Origin: an uncultured Candidatus Saccharibacteria bacterium | GTDB lineage: Bacteria; Patescibacteriota; Saccharimonadia; Saccharimonadales; CAIOMD01 | Reading direction: 5' to 3' | DNA length: 64,000 nt | Assembly (NCBI GenBank): GCA_963716565.1 | Contig: OY970318.1 | Location: 516,284 to 580,283 of the forward strand | Shown here: positions 4,718-57,886 of the stretch, in pieces | How positions within the stretch are numbered: the first letter of the stretch is position 1 | Layout of the letters: every line of letters begins with the position of its first letter | Notes under the pieces: model-generated | Seen by the model: only the letters and a program-made list of their open reading frames with translations | Database searches by the model: none | What the model was told of the DNA's origin: nothing | Made by a program: the position numbers and the translations under genes

Positions 4718-5759
4718 CTACAGTACCCTCTCCGCTAAGCCCGCCGCTACACTAAAATGATTAGACACAGCCAGTAGCTCATTCTGGTTTTCGGGTGGGA
4801 AGGATACATTGCGCCAAGCATTACCAATTTCGACATTAATGCCAAATTTATTAGCCAGATAAAGAGGAAATTCCGGCAAAACAGAAGCGCCACCAGTAAC
4901 AATAATTTTTTCTAAGTTAGAGCCCTGGTAACGCGTTTGATAGAACTTAATAGATTTTTCTATTTCCGAAACTAGGCCGTCAACCGTGTTAATGATAGCG
5001 TTATATATTTGGCCTTCAAGTTTATCTTGGCTTAAGCCAAACTTATAAACAAATTGTTCAGCTTGTTTTTCGTCTATATTAAGATTTTGGACTGCAGACT
5101 TAATAATCGCGCTATTGCCTACCGAAATATAGCGCATTAATCTTGGGCCACCATTTACACAAATAACTAAGTCGGTTCCGTACATCCCCATGTCTATAGC
5201 CATCTGTGGGCTTACGGCGTCCGTGGCAATAACTGCTCTGGCCATAGCTAGTGGCTCCGGCTCGAAAGCAATAACATTTAGGCCGATTCCCTCTAGCATA
5301 TCTAACCGTTGTTCGATGTATTCATTCGGTACACTAGATAGAAGAATTTCTACTTTATTTGGGCCAGCGGGAGAATCACCTAAATAAGCCCAATCAATTT
5401 TACTTTCGATCAATTGGAGTTGGAATTAAAGTATCAGCCTGGTAGTGGATAGTTTTATCTAGTTCTGACTTACTGAGCTTTTCTATATCAACCACCGTGC
5501 TGAATACCTTCTGAGCCGGTAAACCAACAGCTACATTCTTGGTGGTCACTTTTAATTGGCCCACCAATTCCCTGATGATATTAGCTACTTTTTGCTGGTC
5601 AGCTTTAGCGTCACTTAAGACCAGTTTTGATTCTATTGGTACTAATCCGTATTTTTCCAGTTCTTTAACTGGCCCACCACCTCTTAGTTGTACCAAGCGG
5701 ATGGCCGAAGTTCCAATATCTAATCCAAAAAAGTCCTTGACGCCACTTAGGACACCCAT
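4718..5759 (-). pseudogene. pilM: PilM (actin-like ATPase of the pilus alignment complex), split into 119-aa and 231-aa ORFs by a +1 frame change near 5408
   Basis: The N-terminal ORF 5400-5759 (FFGLDIGTSAIRLVQL, ...LIPTPIDRK*) and the C-terminal ORF 4718-5413 (TTG, IESKIDWAYLG...) overlap by 14 nt. Together they make 350 aa, the normal PilM length. Removing the C of GATCGAA gives a continuous PTPIDESKIDWAYLG. Confidence 0.6.
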
Positions 5760-9824: not shown

Positions 9825-10163
9825 ATGAATTTAAATAAAAAGCTAAGTGCCGAAACAGCCCTGATTGCAAAAACTTGGGCAATAGTAATTATTGTGGCCG
9901 TAGTGACTGCCACTTTGGCAGGCATAATAGAATTCATGCGTGGCTGGGGTACTCTTTTTGGCGGCACTGGTAATTCACCAGGCTGGATAGATTCTGTATG
10001 GCTCATTCTAAAATCGCCAACAAATTCAATATTTTTTGTAATGTCATTGGCCGCTTTGATTAGTGTTTTGAGATTAGGTTTTAAGTTTAAAAAAATCGAC
10101 AAGTACATCTTTTTTAATGCCCTATTTTTGTTGGCTTCTTTTCTGCTATATCTGTTTATTTGA
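9825..10163 (+). CDS. Small multi-TM hypothetical protein
   Basis: 112 aa with 3-4 hydrophobic segments and no clear SD. Its 3' end overlaps the tlyA 3' end by 18 nt. Confidence 0.35.
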   Translation: MNLNKKLSAETALIAKTWAIVIIVAVVTATLAGIIEFMRGWGTLFGGTGNSPGWIDSVWLILKSPTNSIFFVMSLAALISVLRLGFKFKKIDKYIFFNALFLLASFLLYLFI

Positions 10164-10916
10164 AATTCTAAATAAATAAAAGCGCTCTTGGTTGCCTTTG
10201 GCGCCAGCCACTTCAGAATCGGCCTTATTAATAATGACAAAATAGTTTTTTGCCCAAGCTTCAAAATCTTTAATGATTGCTCTGCGCATAGAGGCGTTTT
10301 TGATTACACCCTTGTTCTTGAGGCTCTCACCAGCCTCAAACTGCGGCTTTAACATGGCCACGATAAAAGTGTCTTTAGAAGCTAGCGTTGTTAAGTGAGG
10401 CAATATCTGTCGGAGCGAAACAAAGCTGACGTCAACTAGAATTATGTCGACGATAGACGATAGACGATAGACGCTAGAGTCTTTTTTTCTATTGTCCAAC
10501 GTCCATGGTCCAACGTCCAATATGTTGGTTTTTTCGTGTAGCTCAATTTTAGGATTGTCATGCAATGACGGATGCAACTGGTCGGTGCCAACATCTACGG
10601 CAATGACTTTTTTGGCGCCATGGCGCAAGGCAAAATCGGTAAAGCCACCAGTGCTACTACCTACATCCAGCACAATTTTATCTTTAAAATCTAGGCCCAA
10701 TGTTTTGGCGATACTAGCTAACTTTAGCCCCGCACGACTAACGTATTGTTCGGCTTGAAGTAACTCTAGCTTGTCGCGCTCATCAACCAAATAGCCGGCC
10801 TTAGCAACGACTCGGCCATTAACCTTAACTTTGCCAAGCTTAATATAACTTTCGGCCTGGCTTCTTGAGGCAACTTTACCTCTGGCAAAGATTTCGTTAT
10901 CGAGGCGCGATTTCAT
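10146..10916 (-). CDS. tlyA: TlyA-family rRNA 2'-O-methyltransferase (S4 domain plus FtsJ-like MTase)
   Basis: 256 aa. S4-like N-terminus (RLDNEIFARGKVASRSQAESYIKLGKVKVNG), SAM motif VLDVGSSTGGFTD and DVSFVSL. Confidence 0.85.
   Translation of the reverse strand: MKSRLDNEIFARGKVASRSQAESYIKLGKVKVNGRVVAKAGYLVDERDKLELLQAEQYVSRAGLKLASIAKTLGLDFKDKIVLDVGSSTGGFTDFALRHGAKKVIAVDVGTDQLHPSLHDNPKIELHEKTNILDVGPWTLDNRKKDSSVYRLSSIVDIILVDVSFVSLRQILPHLTTLASKDTFIVAMLKPQFEAGESLKNKGVIKNASMRRAIIKDFEAWAKNYFVIINKADSEVAGAKGNQERFYLFRISNKQI
10446..10520. repeat. Family A heptamer-repeat element A1 (inside the tlyA CDS)
   Basis: The plus strand reads GTCGAC GATAGAC GATAGAC GATAGAC GCTAGAG, then a T-rich spacer, then TGTCCAA CGTCCAT GGTCCAA CGTCCAA. 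These are two inverted arms built of 7-nt units. Confidence 0.8.
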
Positions 10917-11475
10917 ATTCGCTCTGACATCCTTGGTTTGAAAAAACTGATATTACTCTTTTTATACCATTCATGCTCACAAAAAACTGGAAAGACTCAA
11001 CCTTGATGGTTTGGCCCTCCTCTATTATTCTCTGAAAGTTCGACACGTGAGGATGATAATCTTCCTTAATGTCTACACTGTAACGTTTATATGGGTCTGC
11101 AGATGTCAGCCCGGTTTTAACCATGCCACGATTTTTAATCAAGTAGGTATCATCATAGTCTAGCCCTAGGGCTTCCGTCATACACAAAGCACCGGCATGC
11201 AAAGCTGGTAATTGCATAGAAAACAGTCTTTGCACAGGCCTGTCTTTGTTTGGCCCAAAATAGTCTACGCCGCCCCCGCCAAGGTTGAACGGTAGCCAAT
11301 CCTTTGCGACTTCACCCATCCTTTGATTGATATACGGTATAGTCTCATCTTGAACGGCATGAAGCGGCGACCAAATTGTTATATGAGGTGGGTACTGGCT
11401 AAACTCTTGTCTTAATTCAACGGGCTCTAATGAGATTGCCAGCAGATGTTCTTTTTGACCGTTATTATTGGTCAT
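10897..11475 (-). CDS. Hypothetical protein, possible 2H phosphoesterase (LigT-like)
   Basis: 192 aa with two H-x-(T/S)-x motifs (PPHITIW and YHPHVSNF). The assignment is weak. Confidence 0.4.
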   Translation of the reverse strand: MTNNNGQKEHLLAISLEPVELRQEFSQYPPHITIWSPLHAVQDETIPYINQRMGEVAKDWLPFNLGGGGVDYFGPNKDRPVQRLFSMQLPALHAGALCMTEALGLDYDDTYLIKNRGMVKTGLTSADPYKRYSVDIKEDYHPHVSNFQRIIEEGQTIKVESFQFFVSMNGIKRVISVFSNQGCQSEYEIAPR

Positions 11476-19241: not shown

Positions 19242-19260
19242 ACTCTTTAATGATTTATAA

Positions 19261-19292
19261 CTCGCTACTAGCAACTAGTTAACTTGCCAACT
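19261..19292. repeat. Family B element B1 (pnp-UDG spacer)
   Basis: After the pnp TAA, the minus strand reads ATAGTTGGCAAGTTAACTAGTTGCTAGTAGCGAG. Confidence 0.7.
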
Positions 19293-19294
19293 AT

Positions 19295-22552: not shown

Positions 22553-22625
22553 TTAGTATCTAGTAGCGAGTGCCGAGTTGGCAAGCAATAAATACAAAAA
22601 GATTCATCTTTATTTCTTGCTAACT
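22553..22625. repeat. Family B element B2 (DHH-like gene / truB spacer)
   Basis: The plus strand reads TTAGTATCTAGTAGCGAGTGCCGAGTTGGCAAGCAATAAATAC...TTCTTGCTAACTA. The arms are inverted. The DHH-like gene's stop TAG lies at the element edge. Confidence 0.7.
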
Positions 22626-24484: not shown

Positions 24485-24877
24485 ATGCCAATAATCAAGT
24501 CCGCTAAAAAGCGGGTAAAAGTAGCCGCCAAAGCTGCTACCAGAAATTCCAAAACTAAGCGAGATTTAAAAGACGCTTTAAAGAGCTTTTACGCTGCCCT
24601 AACCGGTGGCAAAGCCGAAAAAGTTTCGGCTGCACATGTAACGGCCGTTAGCGCTATTGATACTGCTGCCAAGAAAAACGTCATTCACAAAAATAAGGCT
24701 GCTCGCAAAAAGCAGCAACTAGCCGTTGCCATGAAAAAGGCTAACTTTAAACCCCTGGTCGGCAAAAAAACAACCGCTAAGCCAGCTAAAGTTACCGTTG
24801 CCAAAAAAGCCACCGTTAAACCTGCTGCTAAAAAACCAGTCGCTAAAAAGACTGCTAAAAAACCCGCCACCAAATAG
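24485..24877 (+). CDS. rpsT: 30S ribosomal protein S20 with Lys/Ala-rich C-terminal extension
   Basis: 130 aa. MPIIKSAKKRVKVAAKAATRN is an S20 N-terminus. The C-terminal 45 aa or so are AKKP/AKK repeats. Confidence 0.85.
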   Translation: MPIIKSAKKRVKVAAKAATRNSKTKRDLKDALKSFYAALTGGKAEKVSAAHVTAVSAIDTAAKKNVIHKNKAARKKQQLAVAMKKANFKPLVGKKTTAKPAKVTVAKKATVKPAAKKPVAKKTAKKPATK

Positions 24878-25015
24878 TTGGCAAGTTAATAAGTAGCTAG
24901 TGGCGAGTAGTTAGCTGCAGAAAATAATTAATCATCTGTTGTTTTTATAATTTTCTAAGTTCTGTTTGATTTGCGGGACCAAATTAAATCTAGTTACTCG
25001 CCTACTTGCTAACTG
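24875..25015. repeat. Family B element B3 (rpsT / YYY-protein convergent spacer)
   Basis: The left arm is TAGTTGGCAAGTTAATAAGTAGCTAGTGGCGAGTAGTTAGCTG. The right arm is AGTTACTCGCCTACTTGCTAACTG. GGCGAGTA and TACTCGCC are complementary. Both gene stops are TAGs inside the arms. Confidence 0.7.
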
Positions 25016-26975
25016 AATATATTGCATAACGGGCATTGTCGAAGACTGGCTGGCCAAAGGCGCCATTGAAGATATCCCGGTTAATTTTATAGGCGTTTAG
25101 TTCATCTGGCCCAACTAATATGTAGGCCACCTTCACAGCCTCAGCTTTAGCACACAACTCTTGGGAATCAGTCGATTCATAGATGGCCTTAACTTCATTG
25201 CTGCGATAGCTTATTAAACTCCAGGCCTCAGAACTATAGCGCCAACCCCACTCATGGGATTGCCAGCCAATAATCGTTGGCAGGCCACTATAGCTAGCTA
25301 GCCAGCTTTGATCGGTATAGCTTTGCCCGACTGCCTGTAAAACAATCGACTGACCTATAATGTTTTTGCTTGCCCAATCAACGGTTTCTAACTTGGCCGG
25401 ATCTTGAGTTTTAAGATAAGCTAGCCCGTTTAAAGTGTTAGCCCTGTAATCGTTCAAAGTCTTTATGCCAATTACCAAGCCAAAAGATAAAGCAACGCAA
25501 GCGGCGATTATAATTACCCTGAGGCCAAAACGCCTGAGTTTTGTTTTTAGATTGGTGTCTAACAAAACTAGTAATGAAGCGGCAGATACGGCAATTAACG
25601 GCCAAGCGCTGTACCACACTTTAAATACCGTGTTGGCTCTGGCAAACGGCGGATTCTGGTAATAATAAATATCCTTTAAATATATAAATTCGGGCAGAAG
25701 AATCAAAGCTATGCCACCGATAGCCAATATCCAGATTAAATCTGTTTGTTTGTGGCGTTTTAACCACCGCTTTCTCCATAGTATTGCAGCGGCAACTAGA
25801 CCCAAAATAAGCGGTAGCCCAAATTGCCAAAGAATGTGTTTAATTGGAGTTTTAAACAGAGCCACGCCAACACCACCAATAGCTGGGTTAAAGTGCGTCA
25901 AAAATACGATTGCTAGCAGAATAAACGCTAGCACGTAAGCCATTATTAAAGTCAGTAGCTGGTAGTTATCAACCTTGTGGCGCCAACGCATAAACACCAT
26001 CAACAACCCAAAAACTATTGAACAACTAATTACGTCAAAACTATTGGTGGCGCTGAGCAAACCAACCAAACCACCAGCGATGGCCGCCAATGTAATACGG
26101 CTGTTTTTAAAGGGCTTTTCTAGATACAAAAGAGCAACTGTTAGGTAAAACCCGAAGCTTAAAACTAAAGCCATCATGTGAGCATGCAAATCACCCAATA
26201 TTAATGAATACAGCGGATATTCGTTAATCACCTGTTCAATAAAGCGACCGGAATTAAAAAAGAAATAATGATTTTGAGCCGTTAAAGTCATTAAGAATGG
26301 ATGCAAGTTAGAAGCAAAGAATGTTAAGAACAAGGCCAAAAATCCAGCCAGTTTGCGCTTAGCAATTTGCCACCCTAATATATAAATTGAAGTACCAGCC
26401 GTTGCCAGTACGGTAGCAAAACCAAGATTGAAAGCATAAGCCAAACCCGTACGGCTCATTTTAGCTATTGTTGCTACCAGCCAATGCCCAAAGTAATAAT
26501 AATTAAGGCTATCCGGCGCATACCAAGTATCTACCGGAACGCCGGCTGTATGACGCAGTAAATTGCTTAAAATGGCACTGTCCATCATTTTTTCAATGCC
26601 CTCTATTTTGGGAATGGATGATCTTAGGGCGACTCCAACAATAAATAAAGCAATAAAAATTGCTTCGATAAACAGATAGCTCCGCCAATGGGCCTTAAAA
26701 CATTGCTTAAGTGTTTTACGCCGAAAGATAAAGGTTAAAACATATAAAACTAAGATAATTAGCCATATCCACAAGGCGGTAAAAGGTACTATCCTTATAA
26801 GCGATAAAACCCAGGTTATAGCACCCAGCCCAACCAGCCCGATCACCCTGCCAAGGCCATAGCGCAAAAGCGAAAGGTCCCCTGGCCGTATTAAGGCTAG
26901 AACCCCCCAATATGAGGCAACATACAGAGCCCCCAACCAGGCCAGAGCAATTAGCACATCACCAAACGGAATCAT
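25002..26975 (-). CDS. DUF2298 / YYY-motif polytopic membrane protein (GT-C-like, putative glycosyltransferase)
   Basis: 657 aa with more than 12 hydrophobic helices. It carries DSLNYYYFGHW, the motif characteristic of chlor_Arch_YYY/DUF2298 proteins. Confidence 0.6.
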   Translation of the reverse strand: MIPFGDVLIALAWLGALYVASYWGVLALIRPGDLSLLRYGLGRVIGLVGLGAITWVLSLIRIVPFTALWIWLIILVLYVLTFIFRRKTLKQCFKAHWRSYLFIEAIFIALFIVGVALRSSIPKIEGIEKMMDSAILSNLLRHTAGVPVDTWYAPDSLNYYYFGHWLVATIAKMSRTGLAYAFNLGFATVLATAGTSIYILGWQIAKRKLAGFLALFLTFFASNLHPFLMTLTAQNHYFFFNSGRFIEQVINEYPLYSLILGDLHAHMMALVLSFGFYLTVALLYLEKPFKNSRITLAAIAGGLVGLLSATNSFDVISCSIVFGLLMVFMRWRHKVDNYQLLTLIMAYVLAFILLAIVFLTHFNPAIGGVGVALFKTPIKHILWQFGLPLILGLVAAAILWRKRWLKRHKQTDLIWILAIGGIALILLPEFIYLKDIYYYQNPPFARANTVFKVWYSAWPLIAVSAASLLVLLDTNLKTKLRRFGLRVIIIAACVALSFGLVIGIKTLNDYRANTLNGLAYLKTQDPAKLETVDWASKNIIGQSIVLQAVGQSYTDQSWLASYSGLPTIIGWQSHEWGWRYSSEAWSLISYRSNEVKAIYESTDSQELCAKAEAVKVAYILVGPDELNAYKINRDIFNGAFGQPVFDNARYAIYSVSK

Positions 26976-29647: not shown

Positions 29648-29692
29648 CTTTCTATTATCTAACGTCCAACGTCTATCGTCTAATGTCTATTT
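29648..29692. repeat. Family A element A2 (dut-HAD spacer)
   Basis: The minus strand reads AAATAGACATTAGACGATAGACGTTGGACGTTAGATAATAGAAAG. Its first TAG is the dut stop codon. Confidence 0.8.
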
Positions 29693-30121
29693 TCCGGTGC
29701 TACCAAAACGGCCTTCGCCACGAGCGGTCTCATTTAGCTCTGCCACTTCTTGCCACCGGGCCTTTTCGTATTTAGCAATCACCATTTGGGCAATGCGATC
29801 ACCATGATTTATCACAAAATCTTCTTGACCATGATTTATTAAAATCACCGCGATTTCGCCACGATAGTCGGCATCCACCGTACCCGGCGTATTTACAACT
29901 GTGATTCCATTCTTAATTGCCCAACCGCCGCGAGGCCGTACTTGCGCTTCGTAGCCTTCCGGCACCGCTATGGCAATGCCAGTCCAAACAGCAGCTCTTT
30001 CGCCAGGTTTTAAAGTTAGTGATTCTTCCAAGCAGGCATGCAAATCCATCCCCGCACTATGCTCGGTCTGATACTCCGGCAATATCGCATTCGGTCGTAA
30101 TTTTTTAACTTCAATTTTCAT
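29687..30121 (-). CDS. dut: dUTP diphosphatase
   Basis: 144 aa. [36 protein letters not shown] and GRFGSTG. Confidence 0.9.
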
Positions 30122-33222: not shown

Positions 33223-33864
33223 CTAATTAAGGCTCTTTACTAGCTGCTGAGCGCGGTCTAGAAATTCTTGTTTGTCATTGCCGTTGTTTTCAATTGTGAT
33301 AGTAGCATGAGCTTTTACGTAGCTAGTGTTCATCTGAACTTCTTCTGGGATGCCCGGCTGAGGGTTATACTGCAGATTCTCGTGAGCATTAAACTCTTCC
33401 AGGCTAATCGGCTTCTCGCCCGCCCTAAGGTTGGCTAGCTTTCTGTTGTGCCGTACAACATCACTGGCCTCAACCCAAATAAGCTCACCGCCATGCCCTA
33501 AAATATAGCTAACTTCTATTGGGGCACGGATGCTGAACATTACCAACCCCTTATGATGGTCTTTTACTTTTTCAAATTTTTCTAAAGCGATCTTTAGGGC
33601 AAAGTCCGAGCCATTGGTACTACGTAACCAGTTTGACGTTTCGGTCATATTAGCAACAGAGGCTGGGTCTGAGTCATTTTGGTGTCTTTTGCGAGATTCT
33701 TCACGCACGATATCACCTAGTGAGACCCCGAACCAACCATCTTGCATGAACAGTTCAGCCAGCGTATCTTTGCCGCTGCGAGTTAGCCCACCAATCCCAA
33801 CTAGACGTTGGACGTTAGACGTTGGAAGTTGGGGAATTGTTTGTTTCTTTCTATCGTCTATCAT
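33223..33864 (-). CDS. P-loop kinase, dNMP/NMP-kinase-like
   Basis: 213 aa. Walker A GIGGLTRSGKDT. The ATG and the first 20 codons or so lie inside repeat element A3. Confidence 0.45.
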   Translation of the reverse strand: MIDDRKKQTIPQLPTSNVQRLVGIGGLTRSGKDTLAELFMQDGWFGVSLGDIVREESRKRHQNDSDPASVANMTETSNWLRSTNGSDFALKIALEKFEKVKDHHKGLVMFSIRAPIEVSYILGHGGELIWVEASDVVRHNRKLANLRAGEKPISLEEFNAHENLQYNPQPGIPEEVQMNTSYVKAHATITIENNGNDKQEFLDRAQQLVKSLN

Positions 33865-33884
33865 CTAATGTCTATCGTCTATTT
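33801..33884. repeat. Family A element A3 (rpoD / kinase-like gene junction)
   Basis: The minus strand reads AAATAGACGATAGACATTAGATGATAGACGATAGAAAG, a 23-nt spacer, then TCCAACGTCTAACGTCCAACGTCTAG. The first TAG is the rpoD stop. Confidence 0.8.
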
Positions 33885-34994
33885 TATGTAATCTAGTAAT
33901 CGTTTTGAGTCTTTGTGCTTACGCAACTTAGCCAAGGCTTTGGCTTCAATCTGGCGAATACGTTCGCGGGTAACACTAAATTCCTGGCCAACTTCTTCTA
34001 GGGTGTGACTTTTGCCGTCTTCTAGGCCAAAGCGCAATCGGATAATCTTTTGTTCGCGCTCGCTTAAAGAACTTAGCAAATCTTTAACTTGCTCTTTTAG
34101 CAACTGGGTAGCGGCCGATTCTTCGGGGCTAACGGTGTCTTCGTCTTCTACAAAATCACCCAGTACACTGTCTTCGTCGTCATCGCGCACGCTTTGATCG
34201 AGCGAGTGAATATCTTGCTTAATCTTCATAATGTGCTCAACTTTTTCGACTTCAATCTCCATTTCTTTGGCGATTTCTTCGTTGGTTGGTTCGCGATTTA
34301 ACTCTTGAGTTAAGCGGCGCTGAGTGCGAAGTAGTTTATTAATGGTTTCTACCATGTGCACCGGAATGCGAATAGTACGAGCCTGGTCGGCAATGGCGCG
34401 GGTTATGGCCTGGCGAATCCACCAAGTAGCATAGGTACTGAACTTAAAACCTTTATCGGGGTCGAATTTTTCTACAGCCCGAAGCAAACCGGTGTTGCCT
34501 TCTTGAATAAGGTCTAATAAATCCAAACCGCGCCCCACATAACGTTTGGCGATAGAAACTACCAAACGCATATTGGCTTCAGCCATTTTGTCTTTGGCGC
34601 GCTTGTCGCCACTAACAACTCGGTGGGCCAGTTCTAGTTCTTCTTCGGCATTTAAAAGTGGAATTTTGCCAATTTCGCGCAAATACAAGCGCACCGAATC
34701 GTCAGATACGTCGTCTAAATAAACGTTTGGCTCGGCAACAATTGCCTCTTCGTCTTCTTCTTTAACCCATTCGTCGCTAAAATCATCGGCTTCTGGTTCT
34801 TCGGTAGCCAAAAGTTCAATACCTGCTTCGCTCATTTCGCCGTACAAAACATCTAGCAAGTCTAAGTTGTCTGGGGTATCGGGGATTTCTTTAAAGATTT
34901 CCCGTTGCTCTAAATGACCGTCTTTTTTGCCTTTTTCGACTAACTTGTCTTTAGCCGCTGTTAATTCGTCGGCAGTTAAACTATCGTCTACCAT
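33879..34994 (-). CDS. rpoD: RNA polymerase primary sigma factor (sigma-70)
   Basis: 371 aa. Regions 1.2-4 are present ([52 protein letters not shown]). Confidence 0.9.
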
Positions 34995-36755: not shown

Positions 36756-36812
36756 TAGTTTACAGTAAACAGTTTACAGTTAACAGTAATCATTGGTTAA
36801 CAAGCTTTCGCT
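36756..36812. repeat. Family C heptamer repeat C1 (CAGTWWA units)
   Basis: TAGTTTA CAGTAAA CAGTTTA CAGTTAA CAGTAAT CATTGGT TAACAAG, immediately upstream of the dnaG start (minus strand) in a divergent spacer. Confidence 0.7.
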
Positions 36813-48954: not shown

Positions 48955-49020
48955 TTGGCCGTTTCTCCTAAGCTACTTATAAGTTAACACGCCCTTCTGT
49001 TCCATGATAGTGATTTCTCA

Positions 49021-49076
49021 CAAGTAGTGAATTAGCAAGTAAGCGAGTGGCGAGTTAATAACTTGCTACTAAGCAA
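49021..49076. repeat. Family B element B5 (upstream of the 206-aa ORF)
   Basis: CAAGTAGTGAATTAGCAAGTAAGCGAGTGGCGAGTTAATAACTTGCTACTAAGC. Confidence 0.7.
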
Positions 49077-49140
49077 TGTTTAAAAAATATTGCGCTTATG
49101 CTATCTTTAGAGTAAAGAATTATAAAAACAAGGGGGTGGA

Positions 49141-49761
49141 ATGTTCGGTCAAAATCAAGACGATCAGCAAGCGGTGGTACCGCCACCAGATAATATGGCC
49201 AGCGCGCCTGCTAATCCTATGGCCGTAGTGCCAGAACCGCCAATGCCCGGTGATCCAAATATTGTTAGGCCATATACGGCTAGTTTGGCAGAATTAGAGC
49301 CCGAGGTTCAGCCTATTTCGCCAGCGCCTCAAGCAGACGATTTAGCTATACCAAATGATATTAAAGACGAAGATGTAGCGCCAATGCCGGTTTCTGAGCC
49401 AGCAGTTCAGCCAGTTGCACCACAAACTACCGACGAAGAAGATGATGAACCAGAAGCAGCCTTTTCTAAAGATGGCGGTACTTATAAATCCGATTCGCAA
49501 GATGACGATAGGCCAACCACGGATACAGATTTAGATGAATTAAAACGCAAGGCTCTAGAAGCTTTGTCGCCATTAGTTGATGAGCTCGATCAAACCCCGG
49601 AAGAAAAATTCCACACCACTATGATGATGGTTCAGGCCGCAGACAATAAAGATTTGCTACCAAAAGCTTACGAAGCAGCTCAAGCTATAGATGACGACAA
49701 AGTCAAAGCCCAGGCTTTACTAGACGTTGTTAACGAAATCAACTACTTTTCTCAGAATTAG
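49141..49761 (+). CDS. Acidic Pro-rich hypothetical protein
   Basis: 206 aa. SD AAGGGGGTGGA. The N-terminal 130 aa or so are Pro/Asp/Glu-rich and the C-terminal 70 aa or so are helical. Confidence 0.45.
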   Translation: MFGQNQDDQQAVVPPPDNMASAPANPMAVVPEPPMPGDPNIVRPYTASLAELEPEVQPISPAPQADDLAIPNDIKDEDVAPMPVSEPAVQPVAPQTTDEEDDEPEAAFSKDGGTYKSDSQDDDRPTTDTDLDELKRKALEALSPLVDELDQTPEEKFHTTMMMVQAADNKDLLPKAYEAAQAIDDDKVKAQALLDVVNEINYFSQN

Positions 49762-49866
49762 ATGTTAGATATTAGACGTTAGACGTTAGAAATATCGAAA
49801 GTTATTAATTAAAATTAGCTCCCCGAATGGGAGCTAATTTGCTTAGTATCTATCGTCCAGCGTCTA
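49759..49866. repeat. Family A element A4 (convergent gene pair, flanks the terminator hairpin)
   Basis: The left arm is TAGATGTTAGATATTAGACGTTAGACGTTAGAAA. The right arm is TAGTATCTATCGTCCAGCGTCTA. The outermost TAG and CTA triplets are the stop codons of the two convergent ORFs. Confidence 0.8.
49812..49840. terminator. Bidirectional intrinsic terminator between convergent genes
   Basis: AAATTAGCTCCC-CGAAT-GGGAGCTAATTT is a perfect 12-bp stem. An A-run and a T-run flank it, so a U-tract follows the stem on either strand. Confidence 0.7.
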
Positions 49867-50178
49867 TTCTGGTTCCGGCCCAGTATTAGGAATAGTATCA
49901 GTAACTTGTTCGATTACTATTGCTGGAGTGGGGGTTGGGGTTGGCGTTGACGTGGGCGAAGGGCTCACTTCTACTATTGCGGGCACTGGCTGATCATCGC
50001 CGGCGATTTTTCTATATATCCAGCGACCGCCAATAAATATGCTAAATATCAAAGCTGCACCCACAAACGCCGCTACCAAGCTAAACAGAACAGCCATCGG
50101 CCGGCTTACAACCTCGGCATCTTTTGAGTTTAATAAAAGATCATCTTCTTCCTTGTTTCTAAATAAACGCCATTTCAT
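49864..50178 (-). CDS. Small single-TM protein with Pro/Thr linker
   Basis: 104 aa. TM helix MAVLFSLVAAFVGAALIFSIFIGG, then SPSPTSTPTPTPTP, ending IPNTGPEPE. Confidence 0.4.
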   Translation of the reverse strand: MKWRLFRNKEEDDLLLNSKDAEVVSRPMAVLFSLVAAFVGAALIFSIFIGGRWIYRKIAGDDQPVPAIVEVSPSPTSTPTPTPTPAIVIEQVTDTIPNTGPEPE

Positions 50179-50262
50179 AGGTAAACTCCCTTATCTGCCG
50201 TCATTATATCGCCGCATCTTTACAAACACAAATTATCATTTTGTACTAAGCGTTAGCGTAAT

Positions 50263-50288: not shown

Positions 50289-50331
50289 ACTTTTTATTTA
50301 CTACTTATCACCTATTGTTTGCGATTAGCGT

Positions 50332-51960
50332 CTAGTAGTCCATTCCCATGCCGCCGCCAGCTGGCATGGCTGGAGCAGCTTTTTCGGGGATATCTACCAC
50401 CAACGCACCCATAGTCATAGCCGTACCGGCAATGCTAACTGCGTTTTGCAAAGCTTCTTTGGCAACACGCGTTGGGTCAACAATACCGGCAGCTTTTAAG
50501 TCAACTAGTTTGGCTGGATTATTAACATCTAAGCCTAGACCAGTCTTACCATTTTTAACCTGCGGCAACCATTCGTCGGCATTTAAGCCAGCGTTAGATA
50601 GCAATATCCTAAAGGGCTGTTCCAGGGCGTTCTTTAGCAACTGAGCGCCTGGTTCTTCGCTTTTTACAGTACTGCCTAAGTTGATGTAAGTTACGCCCCC
50701 GCCAGGTACAATGCCTTCGTCTAAGGCGGCTTTTACAGCTGCTACGGCATCATCCACGCGGTATTTCTTTTCTTCTATTTCGGTTTCGGTAGCGCCGCCA
50801 ACTTTAATAACGGCTACTTTTCCACTTAGTGCAGCTCGGCGCTTTTCTAGATTTTCTTTATCGTATTCGCTAGAAGCATTCTTAATTTGAGCGTTGATTT
50901 GGTCAATGCGCGCCTTAACTTCACTAACACTGCCGTTACCTTCTACAATCGTGGTGTTATCTTTGTCGGCGATAACTTTGCGAGCCGTACCCACAAAAGT
51001 TAAGTCGGCATTTTCAAAACTGTGCCCTTGTTCTTCGCTAATAACAGTGGCACCGGTAAGAATAGCGATATCGTTTAAGATGTCTTTTCGCCTATCGCCA
51101 AACGATGGAGCCTTAATGGCTAAGGTATTAAACACACCTTTTAGCTTATTAAGTACCAATGTGGCCAAGGCTTCCCCTTCTATATCCTCAGCAATCAAAA
51201 CTAAATCTTTTTTACCAGCCTGAGCCATTTTTTCTAGTAGCGGTAAGAATTCTTGAATAGACGAAATCTTTTTATCGGTAATAACAATGGCTGGCTTTTC
51301 GTAAACAGCTTCCATGCGAGCAGCATCGGTTACAAAGTATGGGCTAGCAAAGCCACGGTCGATGGTAAAACCCTCTACTACTTCGCTTTCTAGTATTAAG
51401 CCCTGGCCTTCTTCTACGGTTACTACGCCGTCTTTGCCAACTTTATCCATAACCTCGGCAATTAGCTTGCCAATAAGCTCGTCGCCAGCAGAAATTGTAG
51501 CCACTTCGGCAACTCGCTTATTATCACTTTTAATGTCTTCGCTTAAGGTAGCTAGCTTGGTAATGGCTTCGTGACCAGCAGCCTCTAGGCCTTTGCGCAA
51601 TTGCATGGGGTCATGGCCGGCGGCAATTAGGCGATTAGCTTCCTTTAAGATGTGGTAAGTCAATATTGTAACGGTGGTAGTACCATCACCGGCTACATCG
51701 TTCATTTTGTTGGCGGCTTGCTTAATAAGTTCGGCACCAACTTTGTAGCCCAAAGTTTCGTCGTTGTCTTCGGGTAAATCTACGCCCTTAGCTACAGTTA
51801 CGCCGTCGTGAGTAACGCTTGGGCTGCCATAACTCTTGCTAATAACCACGTTGCGCCCTTTGGGGCCCATAGTGGTTTTAACGGCGTTATATAAAATTTC
51901 GGCTCCACCTAATACACGGCGGCGAGCATCATCATCATAAAAAACTTTCTTAGCCATCAA
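50332..51960 (-). CDS. groL: Chaperonin GroEL
   Basis: 542 aa. AKKVFYDDDARRRVL..., VAGDGTTTVT and a GGM-type C-terminus (GGGMGMDY). Confidence 0.95.
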   Translation of the reverse strand: MMAKKVFYDDDARRRVLGGAEILYNAVKTTMGPKGRNVVISKSYGSPSVTHDGVTVAKGVDLPEDNDETLGYKVGAELIKQAANKMNDVAGDGTTTVTILTYHILKEANRLIAAGHDPMQLRKGLEAAGHEAITKLATLSEDIKSDNKRVAEVATISAGDELIGKLIAEVMDKVGKDGVVTVEEGQGLILESEVVEGFTIDRGFASPYFVTDAARMEAVYEKPAIVITDKKISSIQEFLPLLEKMAQAGKKDLVLIAEDIEGEALATLVLNKLKGVFNTLAIKAPSFGDRRKDILNDIAILTGATVISEEQGHSFENADLTFVGTARKVIADKDNTTIVEGNGSVSEVKARIDQINAQIKNASSEYDKENLEKRRAALSGKVAVIKVGGATETEIEEKKYRVDDAVAAVKAALDEGIVPGGGVTYINLGSTVKSEEPGAQLLKNALEQPFRILLSNAGLNADEWLPQVKNGKTGLGLDVNNPAKLVDLKAAGIVDPTRVAKEALQNAVSIAGTAMTMGALVVDIPEKAAPAMPAGGGMGMDY

Positions 51961-53788: not shown

Positions 53789-53880
53789 ATAATTTATCTC
53801 GCTAAAGGGGTACGCCCTAATAGCAGACGCACCGCCAAGCTGGGGAGCTTGGCAAAACCGATCGAAAGGGGAAACCGACC

Positions 53881-54417
53881 GTGTGCAAACCAACAGGCGC
53901 AAGATGGTCAGACAATGGAGTGGCAGTAAGGACCGACCCCGAGAAGTACGGCCTGAATCGCGAACAGGCTATCGGGCTCGCCACGAACGTCCTGAAACTC
54001 CCACTCGTAGACCAGTTGCCTGAGGGCGACGAGGCCTGGTGCTACATCAGGGATGAGCACTTCGGTGGCAAACCCACCGAAAGAGCAGCACAGGAAGTAG
54101 AACAGAGTCTGGCAGCTCTGTTCGGCAAGGTGCATGGGAAAACCCATGACCTAGTGGTGTTCGAGAACGACACCAATGCATGCAGGGTGAAGCTGTCTTC
54201 GGTCAGTACTATCACTGCTGACAGCCGAGAGGTCATCGCGAGAGCAGTACACCGAGTCAAGGGCGTCGGCCTAATACGCATACGCGAAGGCAACATCTTC
54301 GCGTGGACGGAGAACGAAGCTGACGCGGCCAACCCCGACATCATGAGCGCCATCAGGAGCGCCGTCAGGGCCAACATGCCACTGGAAGCCTGCGTAGAGA
54401 TCGCGAACCAACCCTGA
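53881..54417 (+). CDS. Island ORF1, orphan 178-aa protein
   Basis: GTG start 8 nt after the SD GAAAGGGGA (53864-53872). GC-rich codons and a balanced, globular-looking composition. No motif I recognise. Confidence 0.55.
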   Translation: MCKPTGARWSDNGVAVRTDPEKYGLNREQAIGLATNVLKLPLVDQLPEGDEAWCYIRDEHFGGKPTERAAQEVEQSLAALFGKVHGKTHDLVVFENDTNACRVKLSSVSTITADSREVIARAVHRVKGVGLIRIREGNIFAWTENEADAANPDIMSAIRSAVRANMPLEACVEIANQP

Positions 54418-54493
54418 CCCTTTCGACACGTCCGAGTGACCATCGTGGCTACCACGTAGCATAGCTGGCCCCTTAGTCACTCAATATCCAAGT

Positions 54494-54522
54494 CCTGGGC
54501 GCCCCCAAAAGGGGTGCCCAGG
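54494..54522 (+). terminator. GC-rich stem-loop after island ORF1
   Basis: CCTGGGCGCCCC-CAAAA-GGGGTGCCCAGG (12 bp with one G-U pair). No clear U-tract follows, so its role as a terminator is uncertain. Confidence 0.4.
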
Positions 54523-54577
54523 ACGGTCGTATAAACTTTAAGCCACAATTTTGCATTACAGACAAGATGATTACATC

Positions 54578-54606
54578 TTGTTTTTTTATTTACTTTATTG
54601 TATAAT
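54578..54606 (+). promoter_or_regulatory. Putative promoter P2 of island cassette 2
   Basis: TTGTTT-17 nt-TATAAT (preceded by TG) in the AT-rich spacer. Confidence 0.5.
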
Positions 54607-54691
54607 ACTGCCCAATGATAGGGAGCATCTGCTCTCTTGAATTGTTCCGTGCCGAGCTGGGGAGCTTGGCAAGATCTAGAAAGGGGATACG

Positions 54692-55123
54692 GTGGCACAT
54701 CCAAGGATAGATTCCGGAGATGCACGAACAAAGGTACATCATTGTCGAGCCTCAAGGCCGGCAGAGGGTGGAGCCCTAAACGCCAGCAGGATGCAGACCG
54801 GCAGAGCCATGAAGCCACTACCGGCATCGTTGCATCCCGAAGAAGTGGTCAGCCGGCTAGATGAAGTCTGTGGGGGCAATCTGTCGGTGATCTTGGACGA
54901 TGGTAGCCAGGTAGAGCTCAAGTGCAAGGCGGCTACTGCTTCCGTCCGAGACAAGCTGTACGTATGCATAGAGTTTGCGGCCGAAGACTGCAAGCTGGAT
55001 CATCGTCGGCGCTGTTTCGACAAGGTCCTCAGTATCATCGAGGGCGTCATGGACGAACTTGGGGTAGACGTCGTGCTCAAGCAATACGAGCAAGAGGCCG
55101 AAGCTTCATCCCGGCCATCATAG
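54692..55123 (+). CDS. Island ORF2, orphan 143-aa protein (start uncertain)
   Basis: GTG 4 nt after the SD GAAAGGGGA (54679-54687), with a leader homologous to ORF1's. The first 39 aa or so are Arg-rich and atypical. Alternative ATG starts are at 54791 and 54809. Confidence 0.45.
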   Translation: MAHPRIDSGDARTKVHHCRASRPAEGGALNASRMQTGRAMKPLPASLHPEEVVSRLDEVCGGNLSVILDDGSQVELKCKAATASVRDKLYVCIEFAAEDCKLDHRRRCFDKVLSIIEGVMDELGVDVVLKQYEQEAEASSRPS

Positions 55124-55251
55124 GCCTTACCCTTTTCTAGAGCGTCACTGAGGTTTCTTGTGTGGCTTGAGGTCGGTGCTGGTATACGCGATATCAGCTT
55201 TCCCCGCTAACCTCTTAGCCCTAGTCAGAACATCTCACACGCCTTTCCGCT

Positions 55252-55305
55252 GAGCCCGCGGGCCTTCTCTACCACAGAGAGGGCCTCGGGCTCGAATTAT
55301 TTTTA
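55252..55305 (+). terminator. Intrinsic terminator of island cassette 2
   Basis: GAGCCCGCGGGCCTTCTCT-ACCAC-AGAGAGGGCCTCGGGCTC followed by GAATTATTTTT. Confidence 0.6.
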
Positions 55306-55424
55306 GCCTTATTTTGATTATTCTTGATTCTTTCTAAAGATATATGCAATTATTTAGTATCTCTAGGCAGTTCCTAGGGAAAGCACAATCTTTGTGCTGC
55401 ACATCAACATCGAAGGGAGTGCAA

Positions 55425-55769
55425 GTGGCACAGACCAAAAGAAGGCCTAAGCGATCGTCCGTCAAGCAGTGTGGCTCAGAGGTAACTCACATAGAGATGC
55501 CCCTGGGCGAGAAGGTATCATCTAAGCACGTCGCGGACATACTCCGCCAGTGCTTAGAAGACAACCCAATCGCTGAGCTCAGCCAACACGGTATCAGGCC
55601 AAAGGTCAAGCCCTTGAGCAACAAGATCTTGGTGATCCTAAGTCACCCCATCTCGAGTAAGCGCTTGGTCGACACGGTTAGGAACCGATTGCAGATGATA
55701 ATCGACGACGCCGTGGCCCAGATCAAGCTCGAAGCTACGCAGCAAAGCGCCATCCAGGCAACGGCGTAG
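55425..55769 (+). CDS. Island ORF3, orphan 114-aa protein
   Basis: I prefer the GTG at 55425, 5 nt after the SD GAAGGGAG (55412-55419). The ORF-track ATG at 55344 lies in the AT-rich promoter spacer. Basic N-terminus AQTKRRPKRSS. Confidence 0.5.
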   Translation: MAQTKRRPKRSSVKQCGSEVTHIEMPLGEKVSSKHVADILRQCLEDNPIAELSQHGIRPKVKPLSNKILVILSHPISSKRLVDTVRNRLQMIIDDAVAQIKLEATQQSAIQATA

Positions 55770-55791
55770 CCAGCCTCCCTCCGTGCACCAA

Positions 55792-55824
55792 CCCGGCGCC
55801 CCTATCGCAAACAGGGGCGCCGGG
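55792..55824 (+). terminator. GC-rich stem-loop after island ORF3
   Basis: CCCGGCGCCCC-TATCGCAAACA-GGGGCGCCGGG, a perfect 11-bp stem. It belongs to a block conserved with the ORF4 terminator. Confidence 0.5.
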
Positions 55825-55848
55825 CCCCTACCATTTAGCCTAAAATAT

Positions 55849-55877
55849 TTGACATTCGTTAATCAAAATTGTACAAA
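55849..55877 (+). promoter_or_regulatory. Putative promoter P4 of island cassette 4
   Basis: TTGACA-17 nt-TACAAA (preceded by TG). Confidence 0.45.
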
Positions 55878-55930
55878 ATATACATCTTGAGTTTTTAGCC
55901 AAGCGAACATCGAGCGGAAGGAGAGCTGCC

Positions 55931-56500
55931 GTGCCCGCCAATAGGTCGTTTACGATCGAACAACAAGGTCCATCGAAGGAGATCTGTCTAACCCTTCACG
56001 GTGATCTTCCTGGCAATCAGAGCGCCTGCAGACAGCTGGCCTCGCGGCTGCGAGGAGGAGAGATGAAGGCGCTTCTTACAGGAGTGAATCTAGACGGCGG
56101 CATCATTACGCTTAAACCCGTACCTGGGGCCGACACCGGCAGGCTGATCATCCAGACCAACAAGATCGCCAACGAGTGGCGCAAGGAGTTCTTTGGAGAT
56201 CAGAAGTACAAGGTCTACACGCAAGAAGGATCGAACACGATCATACTTGAGATCGCCGAGGCCACTCGCAAGAACCTGGGGCCTAGCAGCCTCGAAAGGC
56301 ACTACGGTGAGCTCGTTGTGGCTCTGAAGGGGAGACGGCAATACGCTACCTCTGCCATCAGCGATGTCACTCGCCTTAGGCACACCATCTTCGTAAACGC
56401 TTATCCTGGCCACCTTGAGCAGGTTCGCCAGGAAGTCGTCGAAACAGCGAAGGTTTGGCAATCCCAGTATTTCGGCGACAAACAGTACGTCCAGCTCTGA
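55931..56500 (+). CDS. Island ORF4, orphan 189-aa protein with internal duplication
   Basis: GTG 7 nt after the SD GGAAGGAG (55916-55923). Two halves of about 95 aa end in ANEWRKEFFGDQKYKVY and AKVWQSQYFGDKQYVQL. Confidence 0.55.
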   Translation: MPANRSFTIEQQGPSKEICLTLHGDLPGNQSACRQLASRLRGGEMKALLTGVNLDGGIITLKPVPGADTGRLIIQTNKIANEWRKEFFGDQKYKVYTQEGSNTIILEIAEATRKNLGPSSLERHYGELVVALKGRRQYATSAISDVTRLRHTIFVNAYPGHLEQVRQEVVETAKVWQSQYFGDKQYVQL

Positions 56501-56516
56501 CGGACTCAAGCACCAA

Positions 56517-56549
56517 CCCGGCCCCCTACTAGCTACTGGGGGCGCCGGG
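56517..56549 (+). terminator. GC-rich stem-loop after island ORF4 (right edge of island)
   Basis: CCCGGCCCCC-TACTAGCTACT-GGGGGCGCCGGG. It is homologous to the hairpin at 55792-55824. Confidence 0.5.
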
Positions 56550-56575
56550 CCCCCAACTTTAATAATAAGTTTATT

Positions 56576-56612
56576 TATCTAACATCCAACGTCTAATATC
56601 TATCGTCTATTT
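56576..56612. repeat. Family A element A5 (murE 3' end, island border)
   Basis: The minus strand reads AAATAGACGATAGATATTAGACGTTGGATGTTAGATA. murE reads AAT AGA CGA TAG and stops at the second TAG. Confidence 0.8.
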
Positions 56613-57886
56613 AGCAGTTCCCTGGCGACTTTTCTTTCGTCCCAGGGCATTTTTTTACCACCCATATTACGATAATCTTGATGCCCCATACCGGTAAGCA
56701 AAATCACATCACCCTCTTTGGCGGCTTTAAAAGCGGCTTTAATAGCCTCGTAGCGATCGGCAATTTCTACGTATTTATTCTTGCCACCTGACTTTTCTAT
56801 GCCCTCTCTTACGGCCGTTCGTATAACCTCGCCATCTTCGGTATAGGTTTCGTCGTCGGTTAAATAAACCATATCGGCTAATTTGGCGGCTATTTCGCCC
56901 ATAATTGGCCTTTTTGATTTGTCCCTATCGCCAGTGGCTCCAAAGACAATGCTAAGGTGCCCTTTTGTTAGCCCCTTAAGGGCCTTTAGAGTCCTTTCTA
57001 TGGCATCTGGGGTGTAACCGTAGTCTACGAGCACTGTAAAATCTTGGCCGCAGTCTACGGGCTCTAAACGGCCTGGCACAACTTTGACGTTGGCTACTCC
57101 TAAAGCAATTTGCTGGGGCTTTAGCCCGGCCGTCTGGCCAACTACCACTGCCATGGCCACGTTATAAGCGTTAAAATCGCCCACTAATTTAGTTGACACC
57201 CTTACAACTCCGTCGGTACTTATCAGCTTAAAAGAGGTGCCCTTGGGTTCAACTTTTAGTTCCTTTATCTGATGAGTGGCTTTGGCCTGGCCAATACTTT
57301 TTAGTTTAGTTTCTACCCTTTCGGCAAAATAGCTGTACCAATCGTCGTCGGCATTTAAAATTACTGTTTGCGGCTTAAAATCGGTGATTAACTTGGCTTT
57401 GGCGGCAGCATAATTTTCCATGGTTTTGTGATAATCCAGATGATCTTGGCTTAAATTAGTAACAGCGGCAATTTTTACAGGCACACCATATATACGAAAT
57501 TGATCGAGTGCATGGCTAGTAACTTCCAAAATAATCCAGTCAGCACGGGCCTTTTTGGCTTTTTTAAAAAAACTCTGCACCGACCAAGCGCTAGCTACAG
57601 TCATATGGGTGCGATTAAGCTTATTCACTCCGTTAATCTCGGTAAAAGCGGTGGTATAAACAGCTGTTTTGCAGCCCGCTGCCTTAAAAATTTCGTTTAT
57701 AAAGGCACAAGTTGTAGTTTTACCGTTGGTGCCTGTAACGGCAATAACGTTCATGCCCTTGGCCGGATATAAATTGACAAGATTTGCAGTTTTAGCCTTA
57801 CTCAAGCGACTAAAGTTCTCTATCTGGCGCATCTTTGATGGCGGAATCAATTTACGAATTATCTTCTTAACTTTACTCATTAGCAT
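56600..57886 (-). CDS. murE: Mur ligase, MurE-like (UDP-MurNAc-tripeptide synthetase)
   Basis: 428 aa. VIAVTGTNGKTTT, and a C-terminal domain with LLTGMGHQDY...PWDERKVARELL. The N-terminal domain is short. It could be another Mur-family member. Confidence 0.75.
   Translation of the reverse strand: MLMSKVKKIIRKLIPPSKMRQIENFSRLSKAKTANLVNLYPAKGMNVIAVTGTNGKTTTCAFINEIFKAAGCKTAVYTTAFTEINGVNKLNRTHMTVASAWSVQSFFKKAKKARADWIILEVTSHALDQFRIYGVPVKIAAVTNLSQDHLDYHKTMENYAAAKAKLITDFKPQTVILNADDDWYSYFAERVETKLKSIGQAKATHQIKELKVEPKGTSFKLISTDGVVRVSTKLVGDFNAYNVAMAVVVGQTAGLKPQQIALGVANVKVVPGRLEPVDCGQDFTVLVDYGYTPDAIERTLKALKGLTKGHLSIVFGATGDRDKSKRPIMGEIAAKLADMVYLTDDETYTEDGEVIRTAVREGIEKSGGKNKYVEIADRYEAIKAAFKAAKEGDVILLTGMGHQDYRNMGGKKMPWDERKVARELLNRR

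Follow-up and report, generated by a model that had tools for sequence, protein, structure and literature searches.

What is a repeat that places itself exactly on the stop codons of a reduced genome whose genes abut or converge? The question is raised by a stretch of 64,000 nucleotides (nt) from an uncultured Candidatus Saccharibacteria bacterium (contig OY970318.1, positions 516,284 to 580,283; the window), in which five loci, A1 to A5, carry tandem heptanucleotides that contain TAG, and above all by the locus at 49.8 kb (A4), where such repeats end two convergent genes. A preliminary description of the window had interpreted these repeats, designated family A, as a mobile family resembling repetitive extragenic palindromic (REP) sequences or miniature inverted-repeat transposable elements (MITE), which doubles as a combined stop for translation and transcription. 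Our analysis points, with slightly better than even confidence, to short arrays of a degenerate heptanucleotide that belong to a known class of heptanucleotide tandem repeats, that of the short tandemly repeated repetitive (STRR) sequences, the long simple sequence repeats (LSSR) and the TAACTGA repeats. An array in the TAG orientation begins where the upstream gene natively stops, and its first TAG is therefore the stop codon. A second, inverted array often lies just before or within the start of the next gene, and the pair can form a hairpin that is interrupted at every seventh base. Array sequence has also been co-opted as coding sequence, namely as the start codon of a kinase together with about 20 of its residues, and as a 25-residue loop of TlyA.

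Heptamer arrays at gene ends

A register-aware scan of the window located eight period-7 tracts of the unit T[A/G]GA[C/T][G/A]N in five loci (Table 1), and Tandem Repeats Finder reported period-7 arrays at all five. Each tract comprises three to five heptamers arranged head to tail. The degenerate pattern TRGAYRNTRGAYRNTRGA, which corresponds to (TRGAYRN)x2.5, has 19 matches in the window, all 19 of them within the five named loci, as compared with an expectation of 0.00 from 100 dinucleotide-preserving shuffles of the window. All the loci of the preliminary description are present at the coordinates that it gave, and its claim of a dispersed repeat family is upheld.

Open reading frames (ORFs) were listed mechanically, and their identities were taken from family assignments. 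The first TAG of a tract is the stop codon of dut (29687-30121, - strand), rpoD (33879-34994, - strand), an ORF of 206 aa (49141-49761, + strand) and an ORF of 104 aa (49864-50178, - strand). In A2, which fills the entire junction between dut and a HAD-hydrolase gene, this TAG is at 29687-29689; in A4, the first TAG of arm 1 (49759-49761) ends the 206-aa ORF and the first TAG of arm 2 (the complement of 49864-49866) ends the 104-aa ORF. The murE gene (56600-57886, - strand) stops at the second TAG of A5 (56600-56602), which is the first one in frame, and the first unit of A5 overlaps the last murE codons (NRR). The earlier statement that these five genes stop at the first in-frame TAG of a tract is therefore correct, with the refinement that murE uses the second TAG of its tract. 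It had also been remarked that the groEL stop is followed by ACGC and so reads TAGACGC; this is the remnant of a decayed family A tract. Among the 61 ORFs of the window, 29 end in TAA, 24 in TAG and eight in TGA. Lag-7 autocorrelation over the 35 nt from the stop codon is at or above the 99th percentile of the window at five of the 61 gene ends, and all five are family A, the groEL remnant included.

The survey was extended to about 150 kb of loci from close relatives, anchored on homologues of TlyA, RpoD and GroEL, in which 22 further tracts were found (in the loci designated L121, L122, L205, L467, L468 and L470). In the resulting 215 kb, 12 of the 30 tracts supply the stop codon of a real gene, 11 of these 12 through their first TAG, which bears out the placement of TAG-oriented tracts on stop codons. 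The rest comprise three tracts that lie 1-4 nt after a TAA, six tlyA arms, eight inverted arms and one tract at a contig edge. Gene 3' ends thus hold 15 of the 30, and the eight inverted arms precede or overlap the start of the downstream gene, two of them being read in frame as the N terminus of a kinase.

The preliminary description also held that the tracts supply TAG in every reading frame. At A4-right and A3-left, however, TAG occupies only two of the three frames. For any heptamer that contains TAG, stops in all frames follow from arithmetic alone.

Table 1. Positions of family A tracts and associated features in the window
Feature	Coordinates	Strand	Units or description
Tracts, register-aware scan	10454-10474, 33802-33822, 49759-49786	+	
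Tracts, register-aware scan	56575-56609, 49846-49866, 33854-33881, 29655-29689, 10492-10519	-	
tlyA (rRNA 2'-O-methyltransferase)	10146-10916	-	intact; A1 is an in-frame 25-codon insert in a surface loop
A1 arm 1	10446-10479	+	(TAGACGA)x3 TAGACGC TAGAG
A1 arm 2	10492-10520	-	TTGGACG TTGGACC ATGGACG TTGGACA on the tlyA sense strand
A2, lone tract	29648-29692	-	TAGACAT TAGACGA TAGACGT TGGACGT TAGATAA TAGAAAG
A3 arm 1	33850-33881	-	TAGACGA TAGACAT TAGATGA TAGACGA TAGAAAG; first TAG, 33879-33881, is the rpoD stop
A3 arm 2, inverted	33801-33832	+	TAGACGT TGGACGT TAGACGT TGGAAGT
A4 arm 1	49758-49793	+	TTAGATG TTAGATA TTAGACG TTAGACG TTAGAAA
A4 inner hairpin	49812-49840		perfect 12 bp, AAATTAGCTCCC-CGAAT-GGGAGCTAATTT, between both A4 tracts
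A4 arm 2	49846-49866	-	TAGACGC TGGACGA TAGATAC
Decayed groEL tract	50298-50334	-	TAGACGC TAATCGC AAACAAT AGGTGAT AAGTAGT, 3' of the groEL stop
A5, lone tract	56575-56612	-	TAGACGA TAGATAT TAGACGT TGGATGT TAGATAA

Arrays read as protein-coding sequence

A1 had been grouped with the gene-end elements but is in fact read in frame within an intact tlyA, whose ORF crosses both arms (10446-10520) without a stop (...ILDVGPWTLDNRKKDSSVYRLSSIVD...). The frame stays open because one arm presents TGG-variant units on the sense strand and the other presents CGTCTAT units. The latter is arm 1, which encodes ...SSVYRLSSIVD; arm 2, all of whose units are the TGG variant, encodes ILDVGPWTLD. In the TlyA loop the in-frame TAG is thus replaced by TGG. 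The TlyA homologues come from Saccharibacteria/Patescibacteria; the insert is missing in about half of the 36 that were aligned and has a variable length in the rest. The insert peptides are translated heptamer tracts (ILDVGPWTLD, and TSNIQRPTSNVQHLTS from ACGTCCA units). The AlphaFold model of TlyA is confident overall (predicted local distance difference test score, pLDDT, 87), and the insert forms its lowest-confidence loop, flanked by two strands of the methyltransferase fold. No clean empty site can be delimited at tlyA, the insert-free close relative (P0009, in L123) being diverged over ~40 codons at this position. When TlyA P0002 (in L122) is aligned with P0009, the N- and C-terminal parts are identical, and between residues ~125 and ~185 the insert differs together with ~40 flanking residues, as though through a recombinational exchange of the central segment. 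In the window, a LigT-like gene (2'-5' RNA ligase, 10897-11475, - strand) separates efp from tlyA; this gene is missing from the efp-tlyA junction in L121 and L122, where the efp TAG and its tract directly precede tlyA.

The second case of coding use is at A3. Its variant unit TAGATGA contains an ATG (33862-33864) that is the sole in-frame start of the downstream P-loop kinase, and A3 encodes about 20 N-terminal residues of this kinase; on the gene strand, arm 2 contributes PTSNVQRL.

Relatives, conservation and folding

The presence of tracts and the number of their units differ between related strains. The element between rpoD and the kinase gene is present and orthologous in the window and L205. 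The same junction lacks it in L204, whose RpoD is 98.7% identical and where the sequence reads 'TAG aactag ATG', and in L207, where a TAA is followed by 24 nt; in L206, CTCCTAA/CTCCAAT heptamers stand in place of family A. Between dut and the HAD-hydrolase gene, the window has a 45-nt tract, whereas L205 has a 1-nt TGATG overlap and L207 has 'TAG t ATG'. The efp stop is a TAG with a tract in L121, L122 and L123 and a TAA without a tract in the window, and the C-terminal sequence ERQK is common to all. At the 3' end of groEL, full tracts of four to five units are found in L468 and L470, TAA with GTTAGNA heptamers in L467 and the remnant in the window. The 3' end of murE, compared in four genomes, carries family A, TAACGTA heptamers, GTTAGCA-type heptamers or nothing. 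At A4, orthologues differ by a 10-nt indel, and the stop of the 206-aa homologue has four to five units versus one. The homologue of the 104-aa ORF in L468 has retained a TAA of its own, which precedes the tract by 4 nt. Among the relatives compared, the murE, groEL, dut, 206-aa and 104-aa proteins have C termini of equal length with or without a tract. The arrays are lineage-specific additions at junctions that measure -1 to 24 nt in relatives. The preliminary description had itself named absence from relatives with unchanged gene ends as evidence against a stop module, and such absence is what these junctions display.

In 0.89 Mb of further RpoD-anchored metagenome loci (RpoD identity 52-81%), which come from relatives too distant for junction comparison, there are no family A tracts and only seven period-7 arrays of any unit. 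In the loci compared, family A is limited to a narrow clade of Saccharibacteria.

Other heptamers occur in this clade, and nearly all of their units contain TAG or TAA. The CTCCTAA/CTCCAAT type is present in L206 (11169-11189, 2496-2525 and 19409-19439), L205 (14813-14844) and L468 (48-68); its reverse complement TTAGGAG amounts to TAG joined to a Shine-Dalgarno-like GGAG, and the junctions that bear it carry family A or nothing in other relatives. A second heptamer family in the window (GTTAGCA / TAGTAGC / GCGAGTA type, for example TTGGCAAGTTAATAAGTAGCTAGTGGCGAGTAGTTAGC) is found at 24878-25001, at 19255-19294, at 49020-49078 and after the stop at 22624. At the first of these sites, in an arrangement like that of A4, it brackets the stops of two convergent genes, rpsT (24485-24877) and DUF2298 (25002-26975). 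It also lies 3' of the pnp stop. A ~40-nt block upstream of the 206-aa gene is missing from L467. A third family (ACAGTTT / ACAGTTA, containing TAA) lies at 36757-36789, upstream of dnaG, and recurs in L468 between groES and groEL (6625-6646 and 75-107).

Copies of family A that have been retained are conserved far beyond the neutral level. The A4 region is identical at 91 of 102 positions (0.89) between the window and L467, whereas four-fold sites reach 0.57-0.68 and other intergenic DNA 0.58-0.67. A3 is identical at 59 of 74 positions (0.80) between the window and L205, versus 0.37-0.50 at four-fold sites. For the tlyA element, direct alignment gives 70/76 and 68/76 (0.89-0.92) against 0.58 at four-fold sites, and alignment by codons gives 0.87-0.90 against 0.77-0.82 for the remaining gene. 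A stretch of ~60 nt upstream of the 104-aa ORF (window 50179-50240, L467 1685-1747), with a TATAAT box and a GGGAG ribosome-binding site, is 100% identical in an otherwise diverged spacer; it provides an internal yardstick for a constrained intergenic element.

Folding analysis gave z-scores of -4.4 to -5.7 for the better strand of each of A1, A3 and A4, whereas the lone tracts A2 and A5 do not fold and are unstructured. At A1 it is the mRNA strand that folds better, at A3 the antisense strand. The inverted pairs described earlier can thus form hairpins at A1, A3 and A4, but their arms are not inverted copies, since they mismatch at the N position of every unit, that is, at every seventh base. 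RNAalifold, applied to three A4 orthologues, predicted 40 pairs; one compensatory change is clear, and several of the pairs are broken. The perfect 12-bp hairpin between the two stops at 49.8 kb is real; it is conserved in L467 and L468 and is a separate element that lies between the tracts, outside the repeat of which it had been considered a part. It is plausibly a bidirectional terminator, although the consensus terminator scan did not call it.

That scan performed at chance level (31 vs 23.2, 29 vs 22.3 and 20 vs 20.0) and called no tract or pair in the sense of its gene; the sole call that overlaps a tract, at 10510-10528 on the + strand, is antisense to tlyA. Family A does not present the G+C-rich stem-loop followed directly by a U-tract that marks the end of a transcription unit, and an Rfam scan of the window returned only a tRNA. 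The proposed stop of transcription is not supported, given the unstructured lone tracts, the result of the scan and the position of A1 within a gene; at A2 and A3, moreover, the tracts replace co-directional junctions that measure -1 to 24 nt in relatives.

Two further regions of the window deserve mention. The G+C content is 0.50-0.58 at 53800-56600, as compared with 0.40-0.46 around it, and the four ORFs of this region (178, 116, 141 and 189 aa) have no Pfam match; the region may represent DNA that is foreign or does not code. Just downstream of A5 there is a G+C-rich palindrome (GGGGGCCCGGCGCCCCC). The pilM gene (4718-5759, - strand) is broken into two overlapping ORFs of 119 and 231 aa, which match PilM_2 positions 1-107 and 110-338; the break is at ~5400-5413, beside a short direct repeat (AATTGAT), and in L121 and L122 pilM is one gene of 346-347 aa.

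Explanations and known repeat systems

If family A consists of heptanucleotide arrays of a known class, the arrays would arise and change through replication slippage and recombination. An array that carries stops in all frames would persist only directly 3' of an ORF in the sense orientation, on the strand that is free of stops, or once TAG had changed to TGG. Since almost no space is left between the genes of this genome, the first TAG would come to serve as the stop codon. On this reading the all-frame stop is a built-in property, one that would make the arrays tolerable at gene ends, and not an established function. The inverted pairs probably act on mRNA as intercistronic hairpins in stability or insulation, by analogy with the arrays described for cyanobacteria, and such a role could account for conservation above the neutral level. 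Copying of one arm onto the other by template switching is disfavoured, the arms being mismatched at every N position.

Several observations sit uneasily with an origin of this kind. The retained copies are 0.80-0.92 identical, versus 0.37-0.68 at synonymous sites, which is not predicted by pure slippage and decay. Variant units hold their positions in orthologues, which favours descent under constraint over homogenization by slippage. The A4 arms also show one compensatory pair, a hint that their pairing is under selection. The preference for the first TAG extends to six of seven independent genes (p about 0.007 under a random-frame model), and passive tolerance therefore needs an additional step of compaction or seeding. 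The occurrence of one unit at many loci also needs a mechanism of copying or convergence, and none was identified.

Some of these features favour an account in which the arrays are selected gene-end cassettes, retained as all-frame ribosome stops that act on two strands where the units read TTAG/CTAA, with an inverted partner that insulates or terminates; such cassettes would serve a genome whose genes abut or converge. The account, which we consider unlikely, draws on the exact anchoring on the native stop, on a conservation that clearly exceeds the synonymous rate, variant units having held their positions, on the compensatory change in A4, on the presence of TAG or TAA in nearly all the heptamer families found at the same junctions (TTAGACG, TTAGGAG, GTTAGCA, TAACGTA, TAGGTNT and GNTAGAA) and on the repeated colonization of gene ends in the clade (groEL, murE and the rpoD junction). 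It is opposed by relatives that have identical protein ends but lack arrays at these junctions, and by the location of A1 within an ORF of an essential type. A terminator would be harmful at A2 and A3, where the neighbouring genes are co-directional and, in relatives, either overlap or are separated by 1-24 nt. The lone tracts are without a fold, the pairing of arms is not followed by a U-tract and the terminator scan is at chance; A4-right and A3-left miss one frame, the groEL tract has decayed in the window, and all-frame stops are a matter of arithmetic in any heptamer that contains TAG. In its full form this account states that the TAG/TAA heptamer arrays of the clade combine an all-frame ribosome stop with an interrupted insulating hairpin, are under purifying selection and have been re-created with different units. 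The arrays would then evolve about four times more slowly than synonymous sites, and the units TTAGACG, TTAGGAG, GTTAGCA and TAACGTA would have been re-created at the same junctions. We rate this full form as rather improbable, and a selected insulating role of the arrays as such hardly better than that. A mobile origin, in which a transposase encoded at another site copies a palindromic unit of ~75-100 nt, preferentially to stop codons, is less probable again and is regarded by us as quite unlikely. The layout [TAGACGA]n-TAGAAAG-spacer-[CGTCYAA]n is common to A1, A3, A4, the element between S18 and efp in L121 and copies in L205 and L468, related strains are polymorphic for insertions, and the in-frame insertion in tlyA resembles the Rickettsia palindromic elements (RPE), which are copies of 100-150 nt, homologous along their whole length, that insert a palindrome in frame and add a surface peptide while leaving the protein intact. 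The spacers, however, are unrelated between the A1, A3, A4, L121 and L468 copies, no target-site duplication was seen, the arms mismatch at N and hence are not inverted copies, A2 and A5 lack a partner arm, the number of units varies and tlyA offers no clean empty site. The full-length homology, terminal inverted repeats and target-site duplications of a MITE are thus not found. REP units and the bacterial interspersed mosaic elements (BIME) of enterobacteria are short extragenic palindromes that occur just after stop codons, also between the genes of operons, and can stabilize the upstream mRNA; the REP unit is an imperfect palindrome of 20-40 nt with a conserved GTAG head, linked to REP-associated tyrosine transposases (RAYT). 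Family A shares the position just after stops, but its single tracts are neither palindromic nor folded, and Pfam or NCBIfam scans gave no transposase or RAYT match in 57 of the 61 window ORFs. The REP/MITE-like interpretation is accordingly not supported. With RPE, which belong to an unrelated organism and would not be expected to show sequence homology, A1 has in common a palindromic insertion in frame in a housekeeping gene, whereas family A copies share only their heptamer arms and lie mostly at gene boundaries.

The arrays might also be binding sites, one per heptamer, for a sequence-specific protein or RNA that is common to the many phyla in which TRGACGN arrays occur, but this seems to us very improbable. 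Among the matches listed from a scan of a genome collection for TRGACGN, the unit forms arrays and inverted pairs in Saprospiraceae, Chloroflexota, Gemmatimonadota, Acidobacteriota and others over a GC range of 0.32-0.74, with position 2 dimorphic (A 60%, G 31%) and positions 3-6 conserved at 83-96%, and the conservation of orthologues is above neutral. The search pattern itself imposed part of these shared features, however, and two permuted control heptamers are as common or commoner in viral contigs (TRGACGN 71, GATGCAN 68, TACAGGN at least 120). Genomes that bear TRGACGN tracts contain other heptamer units by the dozen (186 arrays in 80 classes), and no candidate factor was identified; to our knowledge none of the motifs of CsrA (GGA), RfaH ops (GGCGGTAG), Rho rut (C-rich) or TadA (UACG) fits all the unit variants. 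Since ~1000 matches are expected by chance in the 596 Gb scanned, and in view of the counts for control heptamers, recurrence across phyla is not taken as evidence of a common mechanism. A common cross-phylum system was rejected, and the recurrence is read as a general abundance of heptamers in some genomes, as for LSSR. Of the 164 tracts among the matches listed from other phyla, 61 terminate an open frame of 80 codons or more on the strand that carries TAG, and six do so on the opposite strand. This enrichment is trivial, because the stops are on one strand only, and spurious long frames in genomes of high GC inflate the count. Stop offsets among the same listed matches (0 in 25, 7 in nine and 14 in 26) do not follow a first-TAG rule.

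The assignment of family A to heptanucleotide arrays extends such repeats to the candidate phyla radiation. It provides clean cases in which repeat DNA has been turned into coding signals in a reduced genome: the stops of at least five genes, the start and N-terminal extension of a kinase and a loop of TlyA. Gene calls in such genomes will begin or end within repeats, which is of concern for annotation. If the conservation reflects selection, the arrays are a simple and testable system for the function of heptamer repeats.

The unit TRGACGN was not found in any paper by a literature search, which also returned nothing on heptamer repeats in Saccharibacteria. The opinion that the family has no described equivalent nevertheless has to be given up, because heptamers that form hairpins are known as STRR (PMC2670836) and all-frame stops placed on stop codons are known from TAACTGA repeats (PMC4679880). 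Cyanobacterial STRR are tandem 7-bp units at many intergenic sites, inverted arrays of which form hairpins between the co-transcribed hupS and hupL genes; roles in the stability of transcripts or in coupled translation have been proposed for them (PMC2670836). Family A resembles them in its dispersed 7-bp arrays, its hairpins and an occurrence that differs between related strains. STRR in the strict sense are the described units of heterocystous cyanobacteria; the unit sequences of family A differ, its host is a member of the Saccharibacteria with a tiny genome (799-kb contig) and not a filamentous cyanobacterium, and its arrays directly supply stop and start codons. As regards the broader STRR/LSSR kind, family A has the 7-nt head-to-tail units, the dispersal mainly outside coding sequence and the variability between strains. 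Heptanucleotides are the most abundant class of LSSR and are mostly intergenic (Mrazek et al. 2007, as summarised in PMC4679880), and according to the same summary LSSR-rich genomes are scattered across phyla, with polymerase slippage as the proposed origin. As they are portrayed there, LSSR form longer, near-perfect arrays in large genomes, in contrast to the three to five degenerate units of family A, whose host genome is reduced and whose orthologues are conserved unit by unit. The TAACTGA repeats of Beggiatoaceae, Cyanobacteria and Bacteroidetes (MacGregor 2015) provide, in the forward orientation, stops in all three frames, overlap the stop codon of the upstream gene in 13 cases, are few within ORFs and have a patchy phylogenetic distribution with no known mechanism of transfer (PMC4679880). 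The units of the two families differ, and inverted pairs, which are common in family A, are rare among TAACTGA repeats (one indirect repeat). TAACTGA sets are mostly in the forward orientation just upstream of start codons, whereas family A tracts mostly coincide with stop codons and have their inverted arm ahead of the next start.

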